A stretch of 48,315 nucleotides of DNA from Promethearchaeota archaeon Loki_b31. GTDB lineage: Archaea > Asgardarchaeota > Lokiarchaeia > Sigyniarchaeales > SOKP01. The stretch is from the NCBI GenBank assembly GCA_005222975.1, contig NJBI01000024.1, positions 1 through 48,315 on the forward strand, read 5' to 3'. Shown here in pieces: positions 4,896 to 18,699 of the stretch. The notes below the pieces were generated by a model. That model was given only the letters and a program-made list of their open reading frames with translations. It was not told the origin of the DNA and made no database searches. Both the position numbers and the translations under genes were made by a program. The stretch's first letter is position 1, and every line of letters starts with the position of its first letter.

Positions 4896-6395
4896 ATGTC
4901 TACATTACAAGAATCAAAAATTGATTTTAATAGATTATTCTTTCCAAGATCTATTGGAATTATTGGAGCAAGCTGGGATCCAGCAGGTGGGGGCTTTTTC
5001 GTCCGGGCAATGAAAGATAAGTTTCGAGGGCCGATGTATTTATTTAATCCTCGATTAGCTGGAAAAGAGCTCTTAGGTCATAAAGTCTATAACTCTATTT
5101 TAGATATTTCGGAACCCATCGATTACGTCATATTAGCTGTCCCTTCACGTCTGGTTCCTAAATTATTGGAGGAGATCGGTCAGAGAAATGTCCCTTTTTG
5201 CACAATTTTTTCTTCTGGTTTCCGCGAGGTAGGAAACGAATCCCTGGAAAACCAAACAATACAAGTTGCTCGAAAATATAACATCCGAATTATAGGACCT
5301 AACTGTATCGGCGTATATAATCCAAAAGGAGGTCTCTATTTTGCTTTTGAGCAATCCAGAAAATCAGGTAACTTTGGTGGAATATTTCAATCTGGTGGAA
5401 TTGCTCAAAATATCTCTCAGCTTATCGTTTCATATGGATTATATACCTCAAAATCGATTTCAATTGGTAATTCATTAGATTTATCTCCAGTAGAATTTTT
5501 AGAATATTTCTTAACTGACGAACACACTAAAATAATTGGTTTGTACATTGAGAACCTGAGGTCAATCGAACAGGGACGGAAATTTATGGAAATAGTTAAG
5601 AAGTGTAATTTAAATAGGAAACCCGTAATTCTTTGGAGGGCAGGATATGGAGAAGCAACAAAGAAAGCAATCTTATCTCACACTGGAGGTTTAGCCGGGA
5701 ACAATGAAATTTGGAAGGCAGTAGGGAAGCAAACAGGTAGTTGTTTAGCAAGTAATTCAAACGAGCTTGCCGCGCTAGCTTCAGCCTTCAATTTAACTCG
5801 CTTACCAAACACGCGCAATGTAGGGGTGATTGGAATTGGTGGTGGTTCCACGATTGAGGCAATAGACATATTAGAAAAATATAATTTAAAAATACCCCAA
5901 TTATCAGAGAAGTCAATGAATAAAATGAAAAGATTCATCCCAGATGTAAATACTAACTTATCAAATCCAATAGATCTAGGCGGAATGGGAATCCAACCAA
6001 ACACCTATTATCGTACAATTTTAACGCTAGATAAAGACCCTAACATTTCTTCTATTATCTTCGTTAAAGATCCCGAAAGATTTGGAGGGTTTGAAGAAAT
6101 TTTGGATGAATTGGGGTATAAAGGGCTCGATTTAAACAGAGAATTTATAAGATATATTTCTAAAGCAAAAAGCGTGTGTACAAAACCAATGTATTGCGTT
6201 ATGTTAAAAATAAACGAAGGATTCGAAGCGTATAAAAGTAGATACAAATTTAAGCTAAAATTGTTAAATCGCAATGTTCCAGTTTTCGAATCGTTAGAAC
6301 TTGCGGGTTCTGTTTTAGATAAGGTGAATTATTATCGAGAATTCTTGCAAAAGCATGGAAAATTCCCAAAAATTGAAACTATACAAACTTTTTAA
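4896..6395 (+). CDS. Acyl-CoA synthetase (ADP-forming) alpha subunit
   Basis: Motifs FFPRSIGIIGAS (CoA binding), IIGPNCIG, FQSGG, SHTG (catalytic His) and NPIDL. Confidence 0.9.
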   Translation: MSTLQESKIDFNRLFFPRSIGIIGASWDPAGGGFFVRAMKDKFRGPMYLFNPRLAGKELLGHKVYNSILDISEPIDYVILAVPSRLVPKLLEEIGQRNVPFCTIFSSGFREVGNESLENQTIQVARKYNIRIIGPNCIGVYNPKGGLYFAFEQSRKSGNFGGIFQSGGIAQNISQLIVSYGLYTSKSISIGNSLDLSPVEFLEYFLTDEHTKIIGLYIENLRSIEQGRKFMEIVKKCNLNRKPVILWRAGYGEATKKAILSHTGGLAGNNEIWKAVGKQTGSCLASNSNELAALASAFNLTRLPNTRNVGVIGIGGGSTIEAIDILEKYNLKIPQLSEKSMNKMKRFIPDVNTNLSNPIDLGGMGIQPNTYYRTILTLDKDPNISSIIFVKDPERFGGFEEILDELGYKGLDLNREFIRYISKAKSVCTKPMYCVMLKINEGFEAYKSRYKFKLKLLNRNVPVFESLELAGSVLDKVNYYREFLQKHGKFPKIETIQTF

Positions 6396-6421: not shown

Positions 6422-7228
6422 TTAACTTTTTTCTAAATGCTTGATTTCTATGGGTCTACCGGGACTTCCTTGGTAATAGTATTTATCTGGCTTCCCTCTC
6501 CAATTTTTATGTAATACCGTATTTGGAAATATAACGTTATTATCCTTGGTTAAAGCGTTGGGACCGGCAATTATTCCAGGATAGAATGTCGTGTTTTTTC
6601 CAAGTTTAATTTCCATCATACTTATCTTTCCAAAGATTGTATTGACGGCGTGACTCGACAATGCAGCCGTAGGGTAGAAGAAGACGTTATCTCCTAAATC
6701 TGTGAATTCTAAACCTACATAGGAATCGCAATAAATTACATTTTTTCCGATTTTATTATGACTGATCCTTCTTAGTGTGCGATTCACGAGCCAAGGAAAA
6801 GGCGATTTGGACGTCAACCACATCGGATATTTTATTATGAATCCTCTTTTGTGGTAATACTTCATCATCTTTCCTTCTTCGCTATTAACATCGTCTAAAA
6901 CCCGTTTGAAAACTCCTTCTTTGGGAGGTGATTTTTTACTCCATCGTCGAGCCCATAATGCTGTGAACTCAATTAATAAAATAAGATAAACAAAATAAAG
7001 AAATAATAGGAAACCAGGGAGTATTAAAAAGTGAATTATTTGTGGAATTGAAAAATAGATAATAAAACCGTATTCAAATAGTAAAAAAAGCCCCAAACAT
7101 GCATAAAGAGGAACCAAGAAGCTAATAAAATTAATTTTGAGGAAGTCTAAAATGGGAAGTTCCACAACTTGCCCTTTCTTCTGCTCAAATTCGGAATTTA
7201 CTTTTCCTACTACTTTGTTCTCTTTCAT
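6422..7228 (-). CDS. Membrane-anchored left-handed beta-helix (hexapeptide repeat) acyltransferase-like protein
   Basis: Two N-terminal TM helices followed by the hexapeptide-like repeats KIGKNV, DLGDNV, KLGKNT and a terminal YQGSPG. Confidence 0.6.
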   Translation of the reverse strand: MKENKVVGKVNSEFEQKKGQVVELPILDFLKINFISFLVPLYACLGLFLLFEYGFIIYFSIPQIIHFLILPGFLLFLYFVYLILLIEFTALWARRWSKKSPPKEGVFKRVLDDVNSEEGKMMKYYHKRGFIIKYPMWLTSKSPFPWLVNRTLRRISHNKIGKNVIYCDSYVGLEFTDLGDNVFFYPTAALSSHAVNTIFGKISMMEIKLGKNTTFYPGIIAGPNALTKDNNVIFPNTVLHKNWRGKPDKYYYQGSPGRPIEIKHLEKS

Positions 7229-7434
7229 AGTATAATTATTGCTATAGTCTTATAAAAAATTATTTAACCAGATTATTCAGACAAAAAAAAAAGTAAAAAA
7301 TTCCCTTTTGACGATTTTAAAAACGAGTTATATGTCTAGTAAATGGTTAGATTTAAACAACATAATCTTTTTTTATGACAAAAATTTTTCCTTTATATAG
7401 TTCTTTTACACAGATATTACGCAAATTTAAATAA

Positions 7435-8718
7435 TTGTTAATAATAATTATAAAACAGTCATCAAATAATTTTTGGGATAATGAATTGTTCTTAAAAAAC
7501 AAGGCTATTTCTAAAGAAGATATTGAAAAACCAATAGTTACTATTAGAGAATTTCTTAACAAACATAGTAAATACAAAAACTTGGATCTCTATAAAGGTA
7601 TCTCTATTAAAAAGAAGACCTATTCAAAAACTCAGAAACTTAGCCCTTCTATTCAAATAGCAAAGCCAGAAGAAGCAAAAGATATTTCAGAAATTATTAA
7701 ACAAGCCTATAATGGTACTTATCCGTACAAAGAAATGGAGAGCGAATTAGAAGTACGGAAAATGATTGAAAATCCAACTTTTTATTGGCTCGTTTTTAAG
7801 GTAAATAATAACCACATAATTGGTTGTATCGGCTTTGATATTAATCTTAAAACCAAAAGTGCTACCTTCCACGGATTAGCTGTTAAGAAAGGATTTCAAG
7901 GTGTTACAGCTCTTTTTGAACTTTTACTAGCAGGATACTATTCAATATTGAATAATTATGAGAAAAAAATTCTATCATGGTCCTGCGAGATTCGTTCGGC
8001 TCATAATAAAACTCAGTTTTTAAGTATTTTTATAGATTTACTACCAATTGCTTTTTTTCCTAAGAAAGACATCTTCTTTAATCGTGAGGAATCAGAGTTT
8101 TTATTCATAATATATGATAGCGACGCATTGTATAAATACAGGTCTAAAGAAAAACCTAAAATAATCTATCAAATTTTAAATTGTTATGCTTATACTGCTA
8201 AAAAATTGCAAATTGGGCTTCCTCAAGTTAAAAAGTATAAAAAATTAAATTTTAACAAAAAAGAAATTAATTATATTAAAAATAATTTAATTGAAAAAGC
8301 AGAGAGTGATAGTATTGGAAATGAAAAATTTATCATTTCCATTAAAAATAGGGATTCTAACATCACATTTTTACATAATCCTATTAACAAAATTTTTGAA
8401 AAAACGGAATATCAAGTTTCAAATAAAGAAGAATTGTTAATTTTTGTTCAAAAAGTTAAGCAATTAATTAAAGATTATAATATTCGCTATTTTGAATGCT
8501 TCGTGTCAGCTTATCACCCCTCTCATCAAACTATTTTATGTGATGCTAATTTAACTCCATTCGGATATATTCCTAGTTTTAAATATAATGAGAAGAATGG
8601 TGTCTTCGAAGATCAAATTGTTTTTGTTTATTATGAAGGTAAAGTTAATAATCATTTAAAACTAATCCCAGAAACTGAAGATTTTCTAAGAACGATTAGA
8701 CCATTATGGGATTTCTGA
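7435..8718 (+). CDS. GNAT-fold N-acyltransferase (start uncertain)
   Basis: Motifs IQIAKPEEAKDISEIIKQAYNGTYPY, IIGCIG and GLAVKKGFQG (motif A-like). A second GNAT-like segment at the C-terminus (YFECFVSAYHPSHQ...PFGYIP). Confidence 0.7.
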   Translation: MLIIIIKQSSNNFWDNELFLKNKAISKEDIEKPIVTIREFLNKHSKYKNLDLYKGISIKKKTYSKTQKLSPSIQIAKPEEAKDISEIIKQAYNGTYPYKEMESELEVRKMIENPTFYWLVFKVNNNHIIGCIGFDINLKTKSATFHGLAVKKGFQGVTALFELLLAGYYSILNNYEKKILSWSCEIRSAHNKTQFLSIFIDLLPIAFFPKKDIFFNREESEFLFIIYDSDALYKYRSKEKPKIIYQILNCYAYTAKKLQIGLPQVKKYKKLNFNKKEINYIKNNLIEKAESDSIGNEKFIISIKNRDSNITFLHNPINKIFEKTEYQVSNKEELLIFVQKVKQLIKDYNIRYFECFVSAYHPSHQTILCDANLTPFGYIPSFKYNEKNGVFEDQIVFVYYEGKVNNHLKLIPETEDFLRTIRPLWDF

Positions 8719-8774
8719 TCAATAAAACTTAGCTTTTAAATTTGTTAATAATATTAAAAAAGAAGAATTTAGTA

Positions 8775-9821
8775 ATGAATAGTAAGATAAAATTAACTTT
8801 AGGGGAAGGAATAGAAATAGAAGCTGAAGAATTACCTTTTTCTCAAGAGATTAAAATTGTTAAGAATCCTAGAGATATTTTAAAGCTTCTTTGTATCGGT
8901 ACGAATATACCTCATTGGCCAGAATTTGATAAATATATATTACATGATCTTATCCATTTTCATGCCAATTCAATTGTTTTAGTTGAGACAGCTAATATTG
9001 TTGCTCATGTATTAGTGTATCATTATAAAAAGGATACATTATATTTTGGTTTTTTCGGAGTCATAGGCGATAAAACAGCTAAAATAGAATTTATGATTGA
9101 TAAACTAATAGAATATGCAAAAAAAACCAAGTATAAATTCATTCGGGGTCCTATTAATATCCCAACAATCATTTATGGGTGGGGTTTTATGGAAAAGGGA
9201 AGTTCTACAAAGCTTTCTATTCATAAACCTGTAAATCTACCAATTTATAATGAAATTTTTAGCCGAAAAGGTTTTTCTGTAATCTTAAAGGAGTTTTCAT
9301 ATGAAGGTGAATTTCAACCAATACCCTTACATTTTATTGAGAACTACGATTTCAGCGATTATGAACTAATTCATTTTAATAATTGGGATGATTTTGCTAA
9401 GATAAAGCATGAATTTTTACTATTAAACTCTAAAAATTTACCTCCTAAATCTGTGGTGACTCCAGATTCAGGGGGAATCTTCGATAATTATTTTGACTTT
9501 ATAAAACAGTATGGCAACCCGTTCATGCTCGTCTTTCTAAAATATATAAAAACTAATAAGTTAATCGGATGTTTTATTGGCACTCCAGATCCTTTTAATA
9601 AAGATTCTTTTGTTCTATTAACGATTGTAATTGATAAAGAACATAGAAATAAAGGTTTAGGATGGTTAATGGCTAAAGATCTTCTTGATAACGCATTAAA
9701 ACATAATATTCGATATTGTACAACTTTTGTCGGGAGCCATGTAGTTAGAACTAAAGAGATGAGCGAAAAAGACGGGCTTCCGCTTAAGCGAACGCATATA
9801 ATTTTTTTGTATTCAATATAA
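8775..9821 (+). CDS. Tandem-GNAT acyltransferase, YghO/bacterial ceramide synthase-like family
   Basis: N-terminal YFGFFG...IRGPINI...GFMEKG...PVNLPIYNEIFSRKGF pattern. C-terminal VIDKEHRNKGLG acyl-CoA-binding motif. Start set at ATG 8775. Confidence 0.65.
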   Translation: MNSKIKLTLGEGIEIEAEELPFSQEIKIVKNPRDILKLLCIGTNIPHWPEFDKYILHDLIHFHANSIVLVETANIVAHVLVYHYKKDTLYFGFFGVIGDKTAKIEFMIDKLIEYAKKTKYKFIRGPINIPTIIYGWGFMEKGSSTKLSIHKPVNLPIYNEIFSRKGFSVILKEFSYEGEFQPIPLHFIENYDFSDYELIHFNNWDDFAKIKHEFLLLNSKNLPPKSVVTPDSGGIFDNYFDFIKQYGNPFMLVFLKYIKTNKLIGCFIGTPDPFNKDSFVLLTIVIDKEHRNKGLGWLMAKDLLDNALKHNIRYCTTFVGSHVVRTKEMSEKDGLPLKRTHIIFLYSI

Positions 9822-9864
9822 ATTACATATACGAAGTTTTTGGATCTTATATTGAAAGTTAATA

Positions 9865-10716
9865 ATGGCTAAAAATAGGAAGCATGTAAATTGGTCAAAG
9901 TTTTACACGAATTTTATAAATAGGAACATTGGTTTAGTATCTGTTTTAGAACAGGAAAAAATTCGAGATACGACTGTAGCGATTTTTGGAGTTGGAGGGC
10001 TAGGTGGACCGCTCGCAGAAAATTTAGTAAGATCGGGATGCGAACATATTATTATTTGCGATCACGGAAAATTTGAAGAATCAAATCTTAATAGACAACT
10101 ATGTTTTAGAGAGGATATCGGAAAGCAAAAGATCGATGTTACTGAAGAAATTTTGAAAAAAATTAATCCAGACATAGAAGTATGTAAATCCCTTGAAGTA
10201 AACGAAGATAATATATCAATAATGTTAAAACATGTATCTATTGCAGTTTTAACCCTTGACGATCCTGTTACATCAATTTATATTGCCCGTAAGTGTTTAG
10301 AAGCGAAAATTCCATTATTAGAGTCGTGGGGTATTCCTTATCTTTGGGCTTGGTGGTTTACTTATGAAAGTATCGATTATGAAACATGCTATAAATTTAA
10401 CACAAAAAAATTGAGTATTAGTGAAATTAGAAATTCTGAAGATATTATAATTGACATGAAAATAAAAATTTTAGATAAGTTACAAAAATTCCCCGAAGTT
10501 CGGAAAAGGTACGATCGGGAAAAAGGTACAGTTAAAGGTTTATTATCCGGAAAACTACCGCTAGTGTCTTTTGCTCCAGTAGTAAGGATGACGGCTTCTT
10601 ATCTTGCGTTTGAAGTAATATTCTCTGGAATTATAAAAGCAAAAAAAATGATTTTAGCACCTAAAGTTTTAGGATATGATTATATCAATATGAATCCGCT
10701 AATTTTGGAATTATAA
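9865..10716 (+). CDS. ThiF/MoeB/E1-family adenylyltransferase
   Basis: Motifs RNIG...EQEKIRDTTVAIFGVGGLGG and CDHGKFEESNLNRQ...DIGKQK. Lacks the C-terminal CxxC Zn motifs. Confidence 0.9.
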   Translation: MAKNRKHVNWSKFYTNFINRNIGLVSVLEQEKIRDTTVAIFGVGGLGGPLAENLVRSGCEHIIICDHGKFEESNLNRQLCFREDIGKQKIDVTEEILKKINPDIEVCKSLEVNEDNISIMLKHVSIAVLTLDDPVTSIYIARKCLEAKIPLLESWGIPYLWAWWFTYESIDYETCYKFNTKKLSISEIRNSEDIIIDMKIKILDKLQKFPEVRKRYDREKGTVKGLLSGKLPLVSFAPVVRMTASYLAFEVIFSGIIKAKKMILAPKVLGYDYINMNPLILEL

Positions 10717-10847
10717 CTATTATCTACTTTTATGAAAAAATTGCATGACAAGTTAATATCAAAGGGTCTTAATATCTAAGTTTGTAAGGTTTTATATAGT
10801 TATAATGATATTCATAACCTAATAAATAAAAAATATAATAAGGTATA

Positions 10848-11558
10848 ATGATATTTCAAAGTGTAGATTGGACACGAATAATAATTGTTTTTATATCTCA
10901 AGCTTTCATAATAGTTCTGTTTTTTATTCTGGCATTTAAGATTTTGAAAAGAAAAAGGAATAGATCTACTATTACTCTATCTGCATTTTATATTCTTATG
11001 GCTATTGGGCTTATGTTTAATATTCTATTTATCATAATTACACCTTTAGGCAATAAAAATATTTTATTTATTATTTATATCTTAGCTTCTTACTTAATTT
11101 TATTTTCTTTCATTTTTATCGTTATGTTTATTAATATAATTTTAAAACTGGAAGAAATTTTTACAATTAAAAAAATAATTGGTATCATAGTAATTTATGG
11201 CGTTTTATGTTCGTTATTGTATTTTCTACCTGGAGGAATAAGTTTTACTTTAAATTGGATTCCAATATATAGCCTACCTTTATTTATTATTATATCTATT
11301 TTTTTTACCTGTTTTATTACTGTCCCAACTGTGCATTACTCCATACGATTGTATCGTGTGTTTAAAGCTCGTAATTTAAAAGAAAGATTACGCTTATACT
11401 TATTTGGGATTACCCTTATGATGATCGTATTTTACGGGGGTATATATTTTATAACTACATCTAATGAGCTCTTTAAAATGCTTTGGAGCGTCTTTGCTTT
11501 TGTTACGGAAATAGTTGCGGGATTATTAGTTTATTACGGGTTAGGGAGAAACTTGTAG
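10848..11558 (+). CDS. Stand-alone 7-TM membrane protein (HisKA_7TM-like sensor candidate)
   Basis: Seven hydrophobic segments counted by eye, basic cytoplasmic loops (KRKRNR, KARNLKERLR) and no catalytic domain. Confidence 0.6.
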   Translation: MIFQSVDWTRIIIVFISQAFIIVLFFILAFKILKRKRNRSTITLSAFYILMAIGLMFNILFIIITPLGNKNILFIIYILASYLILFSFIFIVMFINIILKLEEIFTIKKIIGIIVIYGVLCSLLYFLPGGISFTLNWIPIYSLPLFIIISIFFTCFITVPTVHYSIRLYRVFKARNLKERLRLYLFGITLMMIVFYGGIYFITTSNELFKMLWSVFAFVTEIVAGLLVYYGLGRNL

Positions 11559-11722
11559 CAGCTTTACGATTTTTTTTTAAAATTGAGTTTTAAAAGTTTA
11601 AATATTATAATTTTTATATTATCTGTGTATTATCTAATAATTCTCGCAAGGAATGTAGCATTTACGAAACTAGAAATAATATTCCAGATCACATTATAGA
11701 GCTTTTAGATACTCTAGAAGAA

Positions 11723-12040
11723 TTGATTAGTCCATTTCATATCAAAATTAAATCTCAAGGAAATACAATTAAAATAACTCTACAAGAAAAGGAACATCCT
11801 ACTCAAAAAGGATGCTTGCGTTGTATAACATTATCCCTTTTTGACAAACCTAAATCTTACTTACTTAGTTTGTATAAGATACACAATGATGCTGTAAATC
11901 ACGCGAATAAGGAGAAATTTGAACAAATATACGAAATTAAGGTGGAAGGAGATTACGAACTGAAATCAATTGAAAATGACTTGAAAAAACTAATTAAAGG
12001 CAAAAATCTTACCCATTCTCGTAAATATTATCCCTTTTAA
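11723..12040 (+). CDS. Hypothetical protein
   Basis: 105-aa ORF with a TTG start and one CxxC (CLRC). No recognisable family. Confidence 0.4.
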   Translation: MISPFHIKIKSQGNTIKITLQEKEHPTQKGCLRCITLSLFDKPKSYLLSLYKIHNDAVNHANKEKFEQIYEIKVEGDYELKSIENDLKKLIKGKNLTHSRKYYPF

Positions 12041-12111
12041 CAAAACCAATATGGATGAGTTAATCTGATAAGAATTGAAATATAGAATAAAAGTAAAAAA
12101 AAAATTTAGTT

Positions 12112-12189
12112 CTAATATCTGGAAAATATAATATTATATCCTGTAGGATTTAGGATCGCTTTATTATCTATTCTCTCTTTTCTTTTCAT
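12112..12189 (-). CDS. Small peptide P1 (25 aa): MKRKERIDNKAILNPTGYNIIFSRY
   Basis: Hand-translated. GAGTGA RBS-like motif just upstream of the ATG, T-run after the stop, and the same unit architecture as P2 and P3. Confidence 0.7.
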   Translation of the reverse strand: MKRKERIDNKAILNPTGYNIIFSRY

Positions 12190-12287
12190 TGTTTTTCACT
12201 CGTTTTTATTTCTTGGTTGTTTTTTTTGATTTGTTTTTTGTTTTGGTTAAATTTTGAATATTGAATTAAAAAAAAATTTAAGTTATA

Positions 12288-12359
12288 TTAAAACTCTAAA
12301 CGCTCAGGAAGGTATCCTGCGTTTTTGATTATTATTATTCTTTTCTCGTTTTCTTCCAT
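12288..12359 (-). CDS. Small peptide P2 (23 aa): MEENEKRIIIIKNAGYLPERLEF
   Basis: Hand-translated. GAGGT RBS 8 nt before the ATG and a T-run after the stop. Confidence 0.72.
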   Translation of the reverse strand: MEENEKRIIIIKNAGYLPERLEF

Positions 12360-12432
12360 CTTTTTTTACCTCGCTTTTTTTGGGGTTATGTTTTTTATTT
12401 TTGGTTTAAAATTAAAAAAAAAAAATTTATTA

Positions 12433-12513
12433 TTAAAATCTACAAATTAAGTATGCCGGATTAAATCCTTCAACTAATCTTACATCTTCTACTTCCTTTT
12501 CTTCTCTTCTCAT
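12433..12513 (-). CDS. Small peptide P3 (26 aa): MRREEKEVEDVRLVEGFNPAYLICRF
   Basis: Hand-translated. GAGGT RBS 8 nt before the ATG and a long T-run after the stop. Confidence 0.72.
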   Translation of the reverse strand: MRREEKEVEDVRLVEGFNPAYLICRF

Positions 12514-12593
12514 TTTTCTATACCTCTTTTCTGTTATTTTTGGTTTTTTTTCTTTCTTGTTTTTTATCTTGGTTAAAAAAAAATTATTTTTAA

Positions 12594-12881
12594 TTAGATT
12601 TTTAATATGAAATTGCGAACTCCAAGAAGCTTTGCGTCTACTTGCCCATTATACTTGTTTATACAGACTTCCTCTTCCGAAATCCTCGCGTTATACTTGA
12701 TTTTTGCAAACACTTTCAAGAGTTTTTTCTTAGGTGATTGTAATTTAACTTGATTTTTTTGCGCTGCTTTGACCTGCACCTGAGGCTTTAACACCTCAGG
12801 TGCCTGATCTTGGGCAGAAATTGGGTCCGCAATTTCTATGTCGTCCTTGGAAATGGATTTTTTTACTATTGCTTGTGCCAT
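12594..12881 (-). CDS. Small hypothetical protein (95 aa), first gene of the peptide array
   Basis: MAQAIVKK...LLGVRNFILKI. GTGA RBS-like motif before ATG 12881. Low-complexity Q/K/P/V-rich middle. Confidence 0.6.
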   Translation of the reverse strand: MAQAIVKKSISKDDIEIADPISAQDQAPEVLKPQVQVKAAQKNQVKLQSPKKKLLKVFAKIKYNARISEEEVCINKYNGQVDAKLLGVRNFILKI

Positions 12882-12944
12882 TTTTTTTATCACTTTTTTT
12901 TTTAAGTTCTTTTTTTTGTTGTTAATTTTATTAGATTCGCAGTT

Positions 12945-13013
12945 CTTATATAGTTTAACTTTAGGAAGTTCGAACGAACTTCGAAGTATAGTGCGAATAA
13001 CAAACCTTAAATA
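12945..13013. promoter_or_regulatory. Divergent promoter region with a palindromic operator-like site
   Basis: Minus-strand TATA-like CTATATAAG at 12945-12953. Inverted repeat GAAGTTCG-aa-CGAACTTC at 12965-12982 overlapping the palindrome ACTTCGAAGT at 12978-12987. Plus-strand TATA-like CTTAAATA at 13006-13013, about 23 nt before ATG 13036. Confidence 0.55.
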
Positions 13014-13035
13014 GCTACGAAACCGTTATATAAGT

Positions 13036-15996
13036 ATGAGTATAGTAAAATTTCCACCTGAAGGTATAATTACACCTATGAAAATCAACAAAGATTTTGA
13101 GCATATTATACTCTGGATGCTCTATAATAACGACCATTGTTCATGGTCTGATTTTAAATCGGATCCTGTAAATATAAGTCAAGCAACTTTGTCGAAATAT
13201 CTTACAATCCTAATTAATAATGGTTTTATTGAGAAGGAGAAGAAGGGTAAGTATAAGATTACACCTGAAGGTAGAAAAAAGTATACTGATCTTCAAGTTA
13301 AAGGTGCGCTTGAAAAAACATTGAATTATCCACCTGAGACTATAACAATTAAGAGAAATTACGATGATTGGATTCTTTGGATGTTATATAATAACCACCA
13401 TTGTAAATGGTCAGACTTCCTTGAGGAGCCCCTCAGAATTAATCAATCTTCATTGTCAAAGAATTTGAATTTATTACTTGAAACTGGTTATGTTAAAAAG
13501 GATAACCGTGAGTATCAGATTACTAATTCAGGTGAATTAGAATACTTCAATATGTTAAAAAAATACGATTTGGATCGCCAATCGATATTAGACGAAGAGA
13601 GCAAGAGAGTTGAGGTAATAACAGACAAGGTAATGGAGTTTTTTAACGATTACGATATCGATGATGATGGGATAAAATACAGATTTTTGAACATGGTGCT
13701 TAGGTTGGATTATACTAAGGTTGAAAGCACCTTGTCCGACGAGGTGGATTTTGATAAAATTTTGCTTTATCTCGCTATTAATCACCCGGATCAATACCCT
13801 AAGTATATCACGGCTAAAGATTTTGCTTTAGAATACGATATAAAGCTAACAACACTGAACTTCTTCATTGAGAAGATCGTTGAAGATAACATCTATCCGA
13901 TACACTTCTTTAAATTAAATGTAAGCGATAAATACACTTACTACATTCAGGCAGAAGAGCGGTTAGAAAAAATGCTAAATGTAATTATCGAGGATTATAT
14001 TAGGAAGTTTACCTATTTGAGTAAATTCCAGAACGCGAGTGGAGTTCAATATCGCATACCCGATATCAACGAGTTACTTGAAGATATAACGAGCGAAATG
14101 TGTAGTAATTTATTCCACGACGATTTGAAACCGGCTCTAAAAAAATTCCTTCCTGAGTATATCGAGCATTTGGCGTATAAATTTGAGAGCGAGAAAAGTT
14201 TGATAAACCACACAGATAAAATAAAAGGGATCGCTTTCCAAAATGTATTCGAGGTAATTCAAAGTTTTGATACATCTGAAACGGCGAGTACGATGTTCAA
14301 ATCGGCCGATAGCGAAGCGTATTACTTCTTACACAACAGAATTTTCGATACCTTGGACATATTCTATTTGACTAAAATAAATTTTATTAGAACATCTCAG
14401 TTCAAAAAGACATACTTTCCTAAGAATTCGGAATTTTTGATGAAAATTGAACGCAAATTAGCGAGAGGGAAACTATCTAAAGTAAACGATTTGCTAACAG
14501 AGAATCTAAAGAATTTAAGTAATATCGAGTTATTGCTTCTGAAAGATTTATTTTACACTTACAATGGGGAGTTAGAAGATTCGCTCGAGCTAACTGAAGA
14601 AATCATCAATAAATACCCTGACGAATATATTGGTTATTTGTTTCAATCAATAACCTATTTCTTTATGGGTAAACTCAATAGAGCGTTAGAAACCATCGAA
14701 TCAGGGTTAAGCAGGACTTACGATGTGTCGCTTATTGCTCAAAAAGCACAAATACTAATAAATCTGGATCACAATAAAGCTTTAGACATTGTTGAAGAAG
14801 CATTAGCTGAACATCCTGATAATTTTTTGCTCCAACGAACTAAATTCCTGAGCATCCTAACAGATAAAGAGTGCTGTGTAAAATCAATTGACGAACCTTT
14901 GGAACTTATTAATTCACTAATTGAAACAAATCCTAAGGACTTGGAACTCTCAGTAATGAAAGCTCTATTATACACGATCACAAACAATTATAAAGAGGGT
15001 AAAAATTGGATTAAACAGGTAGTAGAATTCAATTTACTCAAACATAACCCCCGCGTTGATACGGCAGCGTATTTGATACTATCTTACTCGTATTTAGCAC
15101 GAGGAAAATTCGAGAAAGCCTTAGAAATCGTCAACAAGGTAAAATTTCATTACGGAAATCACCCGCTTACTCACATTATCACCGGTTTTGTTCACGGATT
15201 CAATATAGTCTACAATTTGGATTCGAGTAAAGCAAACAAAGAGCTTTTTAGAGAAGAATTTCAGAAAGCAAAAACAATGGAACAAAGCGAGAAGAAATTG
15301 TCCAGGTATTATCAACTGGAAAGTTATATATTAAACGAAACAGATGGTTTTAACGAGGCAATAAAAGCAATTGATAAAGCGATCGAGTTAAGTCCGGAAC
15401 ACTTCGATATTTATAGTACAAAAGCTCACATATATTTAACTTATGACGATAAACAAGACGAAGTATTAGAGTTCTACGATGAATTATTTGAGAAATTTCC
15501 TAAAGAAGATAAAAATATTCTCCAGATGAAATCGTTCTCTTATTATGCATCAGGAAACATAACAGAGGGAGTTAAAATTCTTGAAGAAGGTCTTAAAGTT
15601 TACCCTGACTCGATAGGTATGCTAAACAACCTATCTATATTTCTAAGTAGTTTAGGAAAATTCGAAGAATCCTTAGACACAATTGAAAAAGCAATCGAAC
15701 TCGATCCACTTCAGGCAAATTTATATGATACATACGGTGAAATATTAATGTTTGCTAAGGAGTATAAAGCAGCTATAGAAAAATTTTATCAAGCGTTAGA
15801 GATGAATCCAACGGGATGGTTTGCGTTTCATACATTCCTAAAACTCTCGAAATGTTATAAAAGTATAGGAATGCTTGAGGAAGCTACAACCTGCTACGAT
15901 AAAGCAAAGATTTTAACTGAAAAAGTTATACCTGGAAAAAGAAAGGTATATTTAGATCAATTAGAAGAGAGTTTTGAAGAATTAAAAAATTCTTAG
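13036..15996 (+). CDS. Tandem winged-helix + TPR-repeat protein (probable transcriptional regulator, 986 aa)
   Basis: Two N-terminal repeats ILWMLYNNxHCxWSDF...[SN]Q[AS][TS]LSK.L..L...G[FY]...Y.IT..G. The C-terminal half has many TPR motifs (AIDKAIELSPEH, IEKAIELDPLQANLYDTYGEIL, ALEMNPTG). Confidence 0.85.
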   Translation: MSIVKFPPEGIITPMKINKDFEHIILWMLYNNDHCSWSDFKSDPVNISQATLSKYLTILINNGFIEKEKKGKYKITPEGRKKYTDLQVKGALEKTLNYPPETITIKRNYDDWILWMLYNNHHCKWSDFLEEPLRINQSSLSKNLNLLLETGYVKKDNREYQITNSGELEYFNMLKKYDLDRQSILDEESKRVEVITDKVMEFFNDYDIDDDGIKYRFLNMVLRLDYTKVESTLSDEVDFDKILLYLAINHPDQYPKYITAKDFALEYDIKLTTLNFFIEKIVEDNIYPIHFFKLNVSDKYTYYIQAEERLEKMLNVIIEDYIRKFTYLSKFQNASGVQYRIPDINELLEDITSEMCSNLFHDDLKPALKKFLPEYIEHLAYKFESEKSLINHTDKIKGIAFQNVFEVIQSFDTSETASTMFKSADSEAYYFLHNRIFDTLDIFYLTKINFIRTSQFKKTYFPKNSEFLMKIERKLARGKLSKVNDLLTENLKNLSNIELLLLKDLFYTYNGELEDSLELTEEIINKYPDEYIGYLFQSITYFFMGKLNRALETIESGLSRTYDVSLIAQKAQILINLDHNKALDIVEEALAEHPDNFLLQRTKFLSILTDKECCVKSIDEPLELINSLIETNPKDLELSVMKALLYTITNNYKEGKNWIKQVVEFNLLKHNPRVDTAAYLILSYSYLARGKFEKALEIVNKVKFHYGNHPLTHIITGFVHGFNIVYNLDSSKANKELFREEFQKAKTMEQSEKKLSRYYQLESYILNETDGFNEAIKAIDKAIELSPEHFDIYSTKAHIYLTYDDKQDEVLEFYDELFEKFPKEDKNILQMKSFSYYASGNITEGVKILEEGLKVYPDSIGMLNNLSIFLSSLGKFEESLDTIEKAIELDPLQANLYDTYGEILMFAKEYKAAIEKFYQALEMNPTGWFAFHTFLKLSKCYKSIGMLEEATTCYDKAKILTEKVIPGKRKVYLDQLEESFEELKNS

Positions 15997-16030: not shown

Positions 16031-17152
16031 TTATTTTTCATTATATTCTTTCACAAGTCGTACTAAGTCTGCTTTTCTATAAGAAGATCGCACTTTAATT
16101 TCATTTTTTTGGCAGAATTCCTTTAGTAGTTTTACCGTCCACTTGTTATAGTTAATCTCTTGTTCAGTAACACCTTGAGTGGGCCCGTGTTGAATAAGTT
16201 TTATAATATCTGCTTTTTTATACGACGAATGTATTTTTATGTCGTGTTCTTGGCAATATTGCTTCAAATCTTTTACTGTCCGTTTATTATAATCTAATTT
16301 GCTATCTTTTTCTTCAATTTGAAGAGCGCCAATTTTTTGAAGTATTTCTAATCCTTTAATTGTCCCATTTTCTCCATTGAAATAAATTCTTAAAGTGCGA
16401 TTATCTAACTCGACTACATCGTGAGGTAAGGAGTTAACGGGCTCCCAATCGACCTCTTCCACTTCTTTTCCGAAAATTTTTGCTTTCTTGATAACTGCTC
16501 CGTAAATTTCGAAGTTTCCCAAAATCAAATTTTGACGCTTAAAATTAGCTGGGACTTCATTTGCTATAATCTTTTCGATTCTTTTCTTAGTATCTAATTC
16601 GGGAGGTTTAATAATGTCTTTGCTTTTTGGCGTTATTGCTTTATCGGATTCTTTTACTTGTTTGATAATTGTATTATTAGCTTTTAAAGCAGGAGGAGGT
16701 CCCCCCCATTGATAAACTTTCTTTTCTATAGTTTTAGAAGTGATACTCGTAGAAACAAGTTGAATCTGTCCAAATTCGCTTTTATTAGCTTCCAAGATTT
16801 CTGGAATTTCTGTTGATTCAAAATCAAACGCTCTCAAAAAATCGCTTGGTTCGTCTCCTTGGTCGACCGAAATTATCTTACACCTATGAAAGTGACCATT
16901 AACGACTAAATCGTTTTGTAATTGTGCTGCGACTTGCGACGCAATAAATTTTTTTCTAACGGGGGACTTAACGCCCTTCCAAATATATATTCTCCTCAAC
17001 CCTTCTTTTACGATAACTAGTACTTGGTAAGGATTTAATATGTTCGTTCCATTATTAGCGCGAAAATCTTCTTCTGTTATATCTAACTTTATTTTTTCGC
17101 CAGTACTTTCTAATCCATAAATCATAAAGTTCTCATAAGTTTCAGACATCAT
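16031..17152 (-). CDS. Gelsolin-domain protein with two C-terminal SAP/Rho-N-like (HeH) repeats
   Basis: VLVIVKEGLRRIYIWKGVKSPVRKKFIAS...VDQGDEPSDFL is gelsolin/villin-repeat-like. C-terminal repeats YNKRTVKDLKQYCQEHDIKIHSSYKKADIIKLI and YNKWTVKLLKEFCQKNEIKVRSSYRKADLVRLV. Confidence 0.75.
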   Translation of the reverse strand: MMSETYENFMIYGLESTGEKIKLDITEEDFRANNGTNILNPYQVLVIVKEGLRRIYIWKGVKSPVRKKFIASQVAAQLQNDLVVNGHFHRCKIISVDQGDEPSDFLRAFDFESTEIPEILEANKSEFGQIQLVSTSITSKTIEKKVYQWGGPPPALKANNTIIKQVKESDKAITPKSKDIIKPPELDTKKRIEKIIANEVPANFKRQNLILGNFEIYGAVIKKAKIFGKEVEEVDWEPVNSLPHDVVELDNRTLRIYFNGENGTIKGLEILQKIGALQIEEKDSKLDYNKRTVKDLKQYCQEHDIKIHSSYKKADIIKLIQHGPTQGVTEQEINYNKWTVKLLKEFCQKNEIKVRSSYRKADLVRLVKEYNEK

Positions 17153-17310: not shown

Positions 17311-18699
17311 TTGAACTACCACTACCTAAATGTAGTGGATTCGTAATTCATCGAGAATTGCTGACTCAACATCAGTCTTATATCCTCTCCAAACGCAGAA
17401 ACGGTAGTCCCTACCGCCTTATCATTATTATAAATGATCGCAATATTGTTTTCTTCTAAAATCTTTAATCCTTCAGTCTTTATATTAATGGAAGCATTAA
17501 TATCTCTGTAGTGATGTCTATTACACTTAGGACACGTCCATTCTTTATCACTTAGTTTCAGTTCTAAGTTTTTAAACCCACATTGAGAACAGAGCTTAGA
17601 AAATAACGACCTATCAATATCAAATGTTTTCCTTTTGATTCCATTTTATATCTTAATATAGAGACGAATTGATACCAAGAAAAGTCTAAAGTTATTGATT
17701 TAGAGACACTTGAATTAAATCGTTTCATCCCTTCAATATTTAGATTCTCTAAAACAACACATTCAAAATGTTTACTGAGAAGATGAGTGATCTTATGAAT
17801 CCAGTCCCTTTTTCTATTAGCTATTTTTTTATACTCTTTAGCCAATTCAATCCTTGTCCGATTTCGATTTTTAGATCCCTTCTTCTTTTTGCTAACTTCT
17901 CTATGGTATCTCTTTAGCTTGGACTCCTTTTTCCTATAAAACCGGGGACTTGAGAGCTCAAATTCTTTTGTTATCAGAAACTTAGAAGCACTCATATCAA
18001 ACCCAATAATTTTATTCTCTTCTAGAATTTGCTTAGGAGATATAGTATTATCAATCTCTATTAGGATTGAAGCAAAATACTTACCTGATCTGGACTTAGA
18101 AACTGTTATATGCCTTATCTTTTCATTAAAAACTCTGTCATCCTTATACTTGATCCAAGTCCTGATCTTGGGTAATTTTAATATCTTTTTTTTAAAATCT
18201 ATCTTACAATTATTATTTATGTTATATGTGGTATAAGATTGCCTATTTTTTTTAGATTTAAATTTAGGATATCCGACATATCGTATAGTCTTCTTTTGTC
18301 TTCTCTCTTTTATATTTTTAAAGAAATTTTCATAGGCGGAGTTTAAATGCCTCCATTCAGATTGCAATGCCTTCGCATCTACTTCTTTTAGAAAAGGACT
18401 TTCTTCCTTAAATTCTTTCTCAGTTTTATATTTATAGTTATAGAGTTCTTCTTTATTTTCCTTTAATTCTTGATAAATCGTCTTTCTTTCTTCTAACATT
18501 TTGTTATACACAAATCTACAACAGCCAAAAGTCTTATCTAAAAGCTCTTTCTGTTCTTTGTTAGGATACAACCTAAATTTATAAGCTCTATTCACATTAA
18601 AAAATAAATTAAGAATGTTTTTAAAAAATATGCCTTAATAGATTTAGTAATTGAGGTGTAAAACTCATCCAATCTATAAGGGAAGTGGCTTTCTTTTGC
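17311..18699 (-). mobile_element. IS200/IS605-family element carrying tnpB only (no tnpA, IS1341-like)
   Basis: Right end has the hairpin CCACTAC-ctaaat-GTAGTGG (17319-17338) and ends in TTCAA on the minus strand (17315-17311). The left end is approximate: a degenerate AAAGCCAC...TGGATGAG region preceded by TTTAA. Confidence 0.8.
17322..18595 (-). pseudogene. tnpB: TnpB RNA-guided endonuclease, frameshifted at about 17600
   Basis: N-terminal HTH (RAYKFRLYPNKEQ...FGCCRFVYN), RuvC-I (GFDM) and RuvC-II (VLENL). The frame breaks after GRYF. The shifted frame reads SKLCSQCG...WTCPKC...RDINASINI...ESTTFR-stop, giving the Zn finger and RuvC-III. Confidence 0.9.

Follow-up and report, generated by a model that had tools for sequence, protein, structure and literature searches.

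Rgg/SHP, ComR/ComS and the wider RRNPPA family of peptide-responsive regulators in Bacillota and their mobile elements (PMC12700828, PMC8605241, PMC6703854) combine a cytoplasmic DNA-binding protein fused to tetratricopeptide repeats (TPRs) with a very short adjacent gene of 17–30 codons. The C-terminal half of the peptide is conserved, and a genome can hold many receptor paralogues, each with its own peptide type; in the shp/rgg pairs, the two genes diverge from a shared region that contains the receptor's site. Leaderless or unconventionally exported peptides occur in this family, which is held to be specific to Gram-positive bacteria and their mobile elements (PMC12700828). Here we describe a locus with a similar layout in a Loki-type Asgard archaeon, carried on a 48,315-nt stretch of contig NJBI01000024.1 (the window, meaning the whole stretch analysed) from a genome of 3.52 Mb with a G+C content of 31.5% (G000); the loci compared with it are labelled L###. 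A regulator made of winged helix-turn-helix (wHTH) domains and TPRs is encoded head-to-head with a minus-strand unit, which comprises a 95-aa gene and three mini-genes located 0.5–0.9 kb from the regulator start, and the regulator presumably binds a palindrome in the region between them. The comparisons below make it very probable that the micro-protein unit is conserved, is linked to an operator and is genetically coupled to the wHTH-TPR transcription factor. The genes of the locus are as follows.

12112..12189, minus strand: P1, a micro-protein gene of 25 aa (coordinates include the stop codon); N-terminal half charged, core ILNPTGY invariant, end R-F or R-Y
12288..12359, minus strand: P2, a micro-protein gene of 23 aa; Ile-rich strand, then a KNAGY core, last residue aromatic or Met
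12433..12513, minus strand: P3, a micro-protein gene of 26 aa; core GFNP-x-x-L, end R-F
12594..12881, minus strand: 95-aa gene, the first of the divergent unit, with its ATG at 12881 (an alternative GTG start gives 99 aa)
13036..15996, plus strand: 986-aa wHTH-TPR regulator, head-to-head with the minus-strand unit
12095–12104, 12268–12276, 12414–12425 and 12575–12583: A-runs on the plus strand, equal to T-runs after the stops of the minus-strand genes

The coordinates and strands that a sequence-only reading of this DNA had given for the mini-open reading frames (mini-ORFs), the 95-aa ORF and the 986-aa ORF were all borne out, as were the ribosome-binding sites it had named for the mini-ORFs. 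Each mini-ORF has a Shine-Dalgarno (SD) site 8–13 nt upstream of its ATG, GAGGT for P3 and P2 and GAGTGA for P1; the 95-aa ORF likewise has an SD site, and a run of nine to twelve T residues (T9–T12) follows every one of the four stops within 14 nt. Proteins of 23–26 residues are invisible to gene callers, and an exact look-up found P1–P3 to be absent from a collection of 15 billion predicted proteins. The C-terminal pattern that the sequence-only reading had noticed in the three peptides (N-x-G/A-Y, a late Arg and an aromatic last residue) is real and recurs in their relatives. The same reading had remarked that the peptides lack a hydrophobic signal sequence, and this holds across the family: Lys, Arg and Glu abound in the N-terminal halves, no family member has an N-terminal hydrophobic segment, and neither a membrane-spanning segment nor toxin-like features are evident in the small products.

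The real array of three SD-led mini-ORFs is far above chance. In 2000 dinucleotide-preserving shuffles of positions 12100–12593 (494 nt), minus-strand ATG-ORFs of at least 22 aa numbered 0.38 on average, 0.027 with an SD site; three or more arose with a probability of 0.003, and none of the 2000 contained three that had an SD site. Orthologues of the regulator are present in 11 other genomes of the genus (64–94% identity over the first 520 aa), and six-frame reading upstream of them recovered the three peptide families and the 95-aa ORF, with P1 in seven orthologous loci, P3 in eight and P2, the most widely kept, in nine. All length differences among the orthologous peptides are multiples of three. 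Start, frame and stop are kept through in-frame indels in up to nine loci, and third-position changes are in excess. Codon-level conservation, which had been proposed as a check on the prediction, was evident from these indels and from pooled ratios of nonsynonymous to synonymous divergence (dN/dS) of 0.43 for P1, 0.35 for P2, 0.49 for P3 and 0.48 for the 95-aa ORF. The distance of the SD site is fixed among orthologues, the P2 SD block CGAGGTAAAA is conserved in the DNA alignment, and an SD site and T-run are present for 33 of the 37 peptide family members. A hidden Markov model (HMM) matched P1 with an E-value of 1e-17, its sole match in the window's genome. Judged by these sequence patterns, the three mini-ORFs and the 95-aa ORF are conserved coding genes. 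The idea that P1, P2 and P3 are several diverged alleles of a peptide did not hold, as they form three paralogous families, each with its own orthologues.

The DNA alignment further revealed that the array is modular, its repeated unit consisting of a T-run, a TTTAA(A)CC element, an A-rich leader, an SD site and an ORF. Whole units are cleanly missing at four loci: the 95-aa gene at L013, the 95-aa gene together with P3 at L011, P3 at L010, and P1 at L009. At L082 (G008:C22), the three-peptide array occurs twice, at 7082–7465 and 8965–9385, with a 204-aa gene between the copies. This double array is followed by small membrane proteins and then by an 886-aa polytopic membrane protein, the C-terminal part of which contains a CPBP-protease-like E-x-x-x-R motif, recognized by eye only.

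Genomes of the genus carry two to nine paralogues of the regulator, which fall into size classes of ~640, ~830 and ~1000 aa. An HMM built from the orthologous peptides alone found related mini-genes beside the paralogous long regulators, with peptide cores that include KNAGYN..YFRF, HNPAY and QNAGYNPIY. Peptide genes were present at ~26 of ~40 long-regulator loci and at none of the ~20 loci of short (~640 aa) paralogues. The window locus is the only place in its genome where the peptide family occurs; no mini-gene array was found there at the short paralogues (contig C78) or at a 776-aa relative (C24). Unbiased HMM scanning of all six frames in 41 whole genomes of the genus returned 36 matches at E ≤ 1e-3, 34 of them within ~2.7 kb of a long (>800 aa) regulator and the other two in a genome with the regulator at a contig end. 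Reading six frames upstream of the homologues, another check suggested at the outset, thus found similar SD-led mini-ORFs in orthologues and many paralogues, and the adjacency of a small peptide-encoding ORF to the receptor gene is kept in both. In 111 genomes of the class that lie outside the genus, there was a single marginal match. The module is specific to a single lineage, one genus of Loki-type Asgard archaea.

Within that genus, the module shows shuffling of regulator paralogues, sensor halves and peptide cassettes. In G026, a 978-aa paralogue that is ~49% identical (L104, G026:C50:35000–43600, and L086) has its own 95-aa-like gene and two peptide genes, and this module adjoins homologues of the window's left-flank genes at 4896–6395 and 6422–7228 (88% and 78% identical, respectively). 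Quite dissimilar versions of the module can therefore occupy one and the same chromosomal site.

Pfam profiles placed winged helices of the HTH_34, HTH_45 and MarR types (also HTH_5) at residues 25–86 and ~129–168 of the regulator and many TPR families from ~616 to 962; they disclosed no NTPase domain. An AlphaFold model built on 22 relatives, with a predicted local distance difference test score (pLDDT) of 82, has winged helices at 21–90 and 109–177, long helices at 309–410 and an uninterrupted solenoid of about 13 regular TPRs at ~445–985. Both parts of the original description, two wHTH domains and a long TPR solenoid, were recovered, and to these the model adds a third winged-helix-like unit at 211–305. 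Public data hold 998 homologues of the regulator, labelled Lokiarchaeota or Promethearchaeota, and these labels, like the adjoining gene for a gelsolin-SAP protein, make an Asgard origin plausible; all database homologues of this protein and of the 95-aa protein are named "hypothetical", "TPR" or "wHTH" proteins.

The 50 best Foldseek matches and the 60 best PDB profile matches comprised TPR subunits of the anaphase-promoting complex/cyclosome (APC/C), OGT, TOM70/Tom71, TTC7 and designed consensus TPRs, and PlcR, NprR, Rgg, Rap, PrgX and AimR appeared in neither set. Because fold and profile searches return no RRNPP receptor, the regulator is not a member of that family and at most works alike. 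The architectures differ accordingly: RRNPP receptors have one XRE-type HTH and 5 or 9 degenerate TPRs, whereas this regulator has two to three MarR/ArsR-like winged helices, a ~230-residue helical linker and ~13 canonical TPRs. The peptides are charged and carry no signal sequence, in contrast to the hydrophobic RRNPP peptides secreted via the Sec or PptAB route. RRNPP propeptides mature in the extracellular space, an oligopeptide permease takes the peptides up again, and TPR binding of the mature peptide switches the receptor. Unlike the RRNPP modules, the archaeal ones contain up to six peptide genes together with a constant 95-aa partner, and their host is an Asgard archaeon.

The canonical TPR fold typically holds short extended peptides or C-terminal tails, as in the recognition of IR tails by APC/C, EEVD tails by TOM70 and HOP, and PTS1 by PEX5. 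Receptors of this kind (APC/C, TOM70) are the best structural and sequence neighbours of the regulator solenoid, and the conserved C-terminal stretch of the micro-proteins, with its aromatic end and free carboxylate, recalls their tail ligands. The known receptors, however, are eukaryotic scaffold or import proteins without a DNA-binding domain, and what they bind are the tails of large proteins, in contrast to independent gene products of 23–26 aa.

The region between the divergent genes contains three conserved elements.

12965..12982, no strand: candidate operator, an 18-bp palindrome GAAGTTCG-NN-CGAACTTC within a 23-nt block that is invariant in 8 aligned orthologous loci
12946..12952, minus strand: TATA-like box of the micro-protein unit, TATATAA, separated by 12 nt from the edge of the operator, in the conserved block AAACTATATAAG
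13007..13013, plus strand: TATA-like box of the regulator gene, TTAAATA, 23 nt upstream of the ATG, in a conserved block; its position suggests a promoter role

The palindrome therefore lies between outward-facing TATA-like boxes and upstream of both, and the 23-nt spacing between box and ATG implies a leaderless or near-leaderless regulator mRNA. It is the only site at two or fewer mismatches in the 3.52 Mb of the window's genome; two other sites, both on other contigs, have exactly three. Paralogous regulators carry variants of the motif, for example the perfect 18-bp TTGAAGTTCGAACTTCAA at L028, and half-site words occur within ~280 nt upstream of 42 of the 61 family regulators compared with 9.7% of random windows. 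The winged-helix part of the regulator is very highly conserved, in line with this recurrence. At loci without the 95-aa gene (L011, L013), and likewise at the paralogues L043 and L048, a peptide gene comes immediately after the operator-linked promoter. The regulator probably binds the palindrome as a dimer via its conserved winged helices. Binding is more likely to activate than to repress, since the site is upstream of both TATA boxes and abuts the transcription factor B recognition element (BRE) and TATA box of the micro-protein unit.

We tentatively favour a micro-protein regulon under operator control, with probable feedback of its products on the TPR domain, more likely intracellularly. 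A regulator dimer would bind the operator and activate both the micro-protein unit and its own gene. Less firmly, the micro-proteins, and perhaps the 95-aa protein, could be the cognate partners of the canonical TPR groove, and the conserved aromatic-ended C-terminal halves of the micro-proteins would then feed back on the regulator. The outcome would be an RRNPP/Rgg-SHP-like logic assembled from unrelated parts. A role of the peptides as TPR ligands is suggested by analogy with Rgg/SHP, by the binding habit of the canonical TPR groove and by the finding of peptide genes beside long-TPR paralogues only. The kinds of protein that the TPR part resembles, and its faster divergence relative to the DNA-binding part, also speak for this reading. 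The lack of a signal sequence in the peptides and of an exporter conserved alongside the module makes intracellular action likelier than secretion.

The sequence-only reading had envisaged an RRNPP-analogous circuit. Conserved genes, their genetic coupling and a divergent layout around an operator agree with that view, whereas receptor homology, a signal sequence, a shared exporter and peptide-TPR covariation were not found. Its remark that it knew of no described equivalent was supported, as full-text searches of the literature library used gave no account of archaeal RRNPP-like or peptide/TPR regulation or of archaeal peptide communication. The module provides a concrete case from the archaeal lineage closest to eukaryotes, with a candidate operator, regulator and peptide ligands defined. 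The sensor is a TPR superhelix of the canonical, eukaryote-like kind. Binding of the peptides to it would mean that receptor-peptide circuitry was invented independently here; without such binding, there is still a sizeable set of conserved micro-proteins.

Several observations weigh against feedback of the peptides on the TPR domain. For about one-third of the long regulators, a search of the 1.5–2 kb around them detected no peptide gene; some of these have a 95-aa-like gene without peptides (L041, L051, L053), and some have neither. The spacers between the mini-genes carry no operator, so P1–P3 may come from their own promoters or from terminator read-through. With the effect of the N-terminal domain removed, a partial Mantel test on the orthologues (7–9 loci) detected no covariation between the peptides and the TPR part. 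The peptides, which are linked to the N-terminal end of the regulator gene, follow its N-terminal half and not its TPR half, a weak trend in the same test. This evidence, itself weak, lends no support to a pherotype-like co-evolution of peptide and TPR surface.

Compared with L008–L014, the regulator gene is, from its sequence, a recombination mosaic. In the six closest orthologues (L008–L013), the TPR part is 72–77% identical and the N-terminal 440 residues 87–96%, and the synonymous divergence (dS) differs between the halves (0.67 versus 0.20 for G000/L008; 0.69 versus 3.2 for L012/L014). The ratio omega is 0.13–0.26 in both halves, indicative of purifying selection, and positive selection in the TPR half was thereby ruled out; the excess divergence of that half is due to recombination instead. 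Recombination between the halves would part a specific receptor surface from its linked peptides and thus also counts against the feedback we favour.

It is possible, though rather doubtful, that the micro-proteins are output only. The TPR solenoid would then sense a protein partner or an unrelated ligand, and the micro-proteins and 95-aa protein would form the regulon, acting as small effectors on other cellular targets or on competitors, as with AfsR/afsS. AfsR of Streptomyces is a SARP-NB-ARC-TPR STAND ATPase that activates the adjacent afsS, a single downstream gene for a protein of 63 aa; a large DNA-binding/TPR regulator there has a small-protein gene as its main target, and the small protein is an output and not a ligand. 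The present regulator differs in having no NTPase domain, several small genes and a divergent arrangement, and shares no sequence kinship with that system. With an operator unique in the genome, the divergent unit appears to be the whole regulon. The lack of peptide-TPR covariation, the exchange of TPR halves independently of the linked peptides, and the long regulators accompanied by the 95-aa-like gene alone, or by neither gene, also fit an output role. A self-contained circuit of this type nevertheless needs a function for its products; none is evident, and no partner gene is conserved except the regulator. The confinement of peptides to long-TPR paralogues, never short ones, fits instead a link to the long TPR part.

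Another explanation, which we consider unlikely, is that the mini-genes encode bacteriocin-like precursors or precursors of ribosomally synthesized and post-translationally modified peptides (RiPPs), each with a charged leader and a conserved core, which enzymes modify and a membrane protein exports. The wHTH-TPR protein would then be a cluster-situated regulator. Two sets of nearby genes bear on this.

7435–12040: cassette of two GNAT-like proteins (427 and 359 aa), a ThiF-family adenylyltransferase (283 aa), a 236-aa membrane protein and a 105-aa ORF
L106:7582–8298, L110:32–748, L111:70–705 and 1595–2320, L104:7811–8473, L107:7704–8375 and L108:7524–8195: radical-SAM-like genes

One point in favour of a RiPP pathway is the syntenic, fast-evolving cassette of the orthologue group. 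It lies 0.1–12 kb beyond the peptides in every orthologous locus with a long enough contig and is only 40–60% identical, compared with 85–97% for flanking genes; its gene order is rearranged in the window's genome, and its 236-aa polytopic membrane protein belongs to a multi-copy family. An MFS gene stands two genes from the regulator in all eight orthologous loci. In three paralogue groups, a radical-SAM-like gene for 220–240 aa lies directly downstream of the regulator, with DHA3-type MFS exporters (Mef/EntS-like) 2–5 kb beyond it. Microcin C clusters likewise join a short peptide, MccA, to the ThiF-like MccB, the GNAT protein MccE and an MFS pump, and the window locus resembles them in having short peptide genes near a ThiF-family enzyme, GNAT-like proteins, a membrane protein and an MFS gene.

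The peptides end in Phe, Tyr or Met and not in the Asn required by microcin-C-type ThiF enzymes, and the ThiF protein, with a Pfam match spanning residues 19–277 of 283, has no extra N-terminal domain that could serve as a peptide clamp. The ThiF/GNAT cassette is absent within 10–12 kb of the paralogous modules, and no operator precedes it or the MFS gene in the window's genome to link them to the regulator. The radical-SAM-like gene is absent from the window locus, its relatives in that genome being on other contigs only; three of the copies listed keep the CxxxCxxC motif and three have lost it by an 18-residue deletion; the Fe-S loop is missing in half of the groups. Most RiPP families, moreover, conserve the leader and vary the core, whereas in these peptides it is the "leader" that varies and the C-terminal "core" that is kept. 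Neither an enzyme nor an exporter recurs in every module, which leaves the regulator, the 95-aa gene and the peptides as the conserved core. On the peptide side of the paralogous modules, there are no recurring neighbours apart from TrmB-like and unknown genes at three loci.

Cell-to-cell signalling is decidedly unlikely. The micro-proteins would have to exit by a leaderless route, for example through nearby MFS pumps, and be sensed, whole or trimmed down to the conserved C-terminal part, by the TPR solenoid of the regulator, which would switch on their promoter. The window's genome has three SBP_bac_5 (Opp/Dpp-type) binding-protein genes; these are on other contigs, and none is linked to the module. 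If secretion did occur, Asgard peptide signalling would have been invented independently of the bacterial RRNPP family, and the many receptor/peptide paralogues and recombining sensor halves would act as "pherotypes".

That the mini-ORFs are untranslated, as small non-coding RNAs or chance ORFs in a spacer, is very improbable: some stop codons are scarce on the purine-rich strand of an AT-rich genome, but the shuffle test, the retention of start, frame and stop, dN/dS values below 0.5, the third-position excess and the fixed-distance SD sites all argue for translation, as do amino-acid-level HMMs that recover diverged paralogues beside paralogous regulators.

The 95-aa protein has a variable N-terminal half that is predicted to be disordered, a basic middle with K-Y-N-A-R and a helical C-terminal part, mostly ending in N-F; its model (pLDDT 65) contains helices at 50–61 and 65–94. 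Public data hold 180 homologues, all hypothetical and all Loki-type, and an Atlas search with the protein returned no match. Because homologues accompany the paralogous modules, including the three loci without a detected peptide (L041, L051, L053), it is the most constant partner of the long regulators. Co-folding of the TPR region (residues 440–986) with the 95-aa protein gave a score of 0.01 and a mark of 0.32, values that speak neither for nor against binding. A profile-profile comparison of the peptides with the 95-aa family had its best local match at the Y-N-A/P motif (E 0.007); at a probability of only 5%, homology of the two was not established.

One further element lies inside the 95-aa ORF.

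12775..12802, minus strand: inverted repeat with a 10-bp stem, GCACCTGAGG-N8-CCTCAGGTGC

Its stem is nucleotide-invariant in 9 orthologues, third codon positions included, and its loop varies freely; the only two changes in the stem are one-sided, and both are wobble-compatible on the sense strand. This pattern suggests an mRNA hairpin or a second protein-binding palindrome.

On the 3' side of the regulator, genes for a gelsolin-SAP protein, an MFS protein and alpha/beta hydrolases are syntenic in all eight loci examined. A TnpB/IS605 OrfB gene (HTH_OrfB_IS605 and OrfB_IS605 domains) with a Zn-ribbon end that looks truncated is inserted at window positions 17564–18595, between the gelsolin-SAP and MFS genes, and is absent at the same position in the seven other orthologous loci. 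The gelsolin-SAP gene itself (16031–17152), convergent to the regulator, encodes a protein of 373 aa that combines a gelsolin repeat with two SAP/HeH/LEM-like motifs in its C-terminal part; it is kept in place in all eight loci and evolves fast (51–87% identity).

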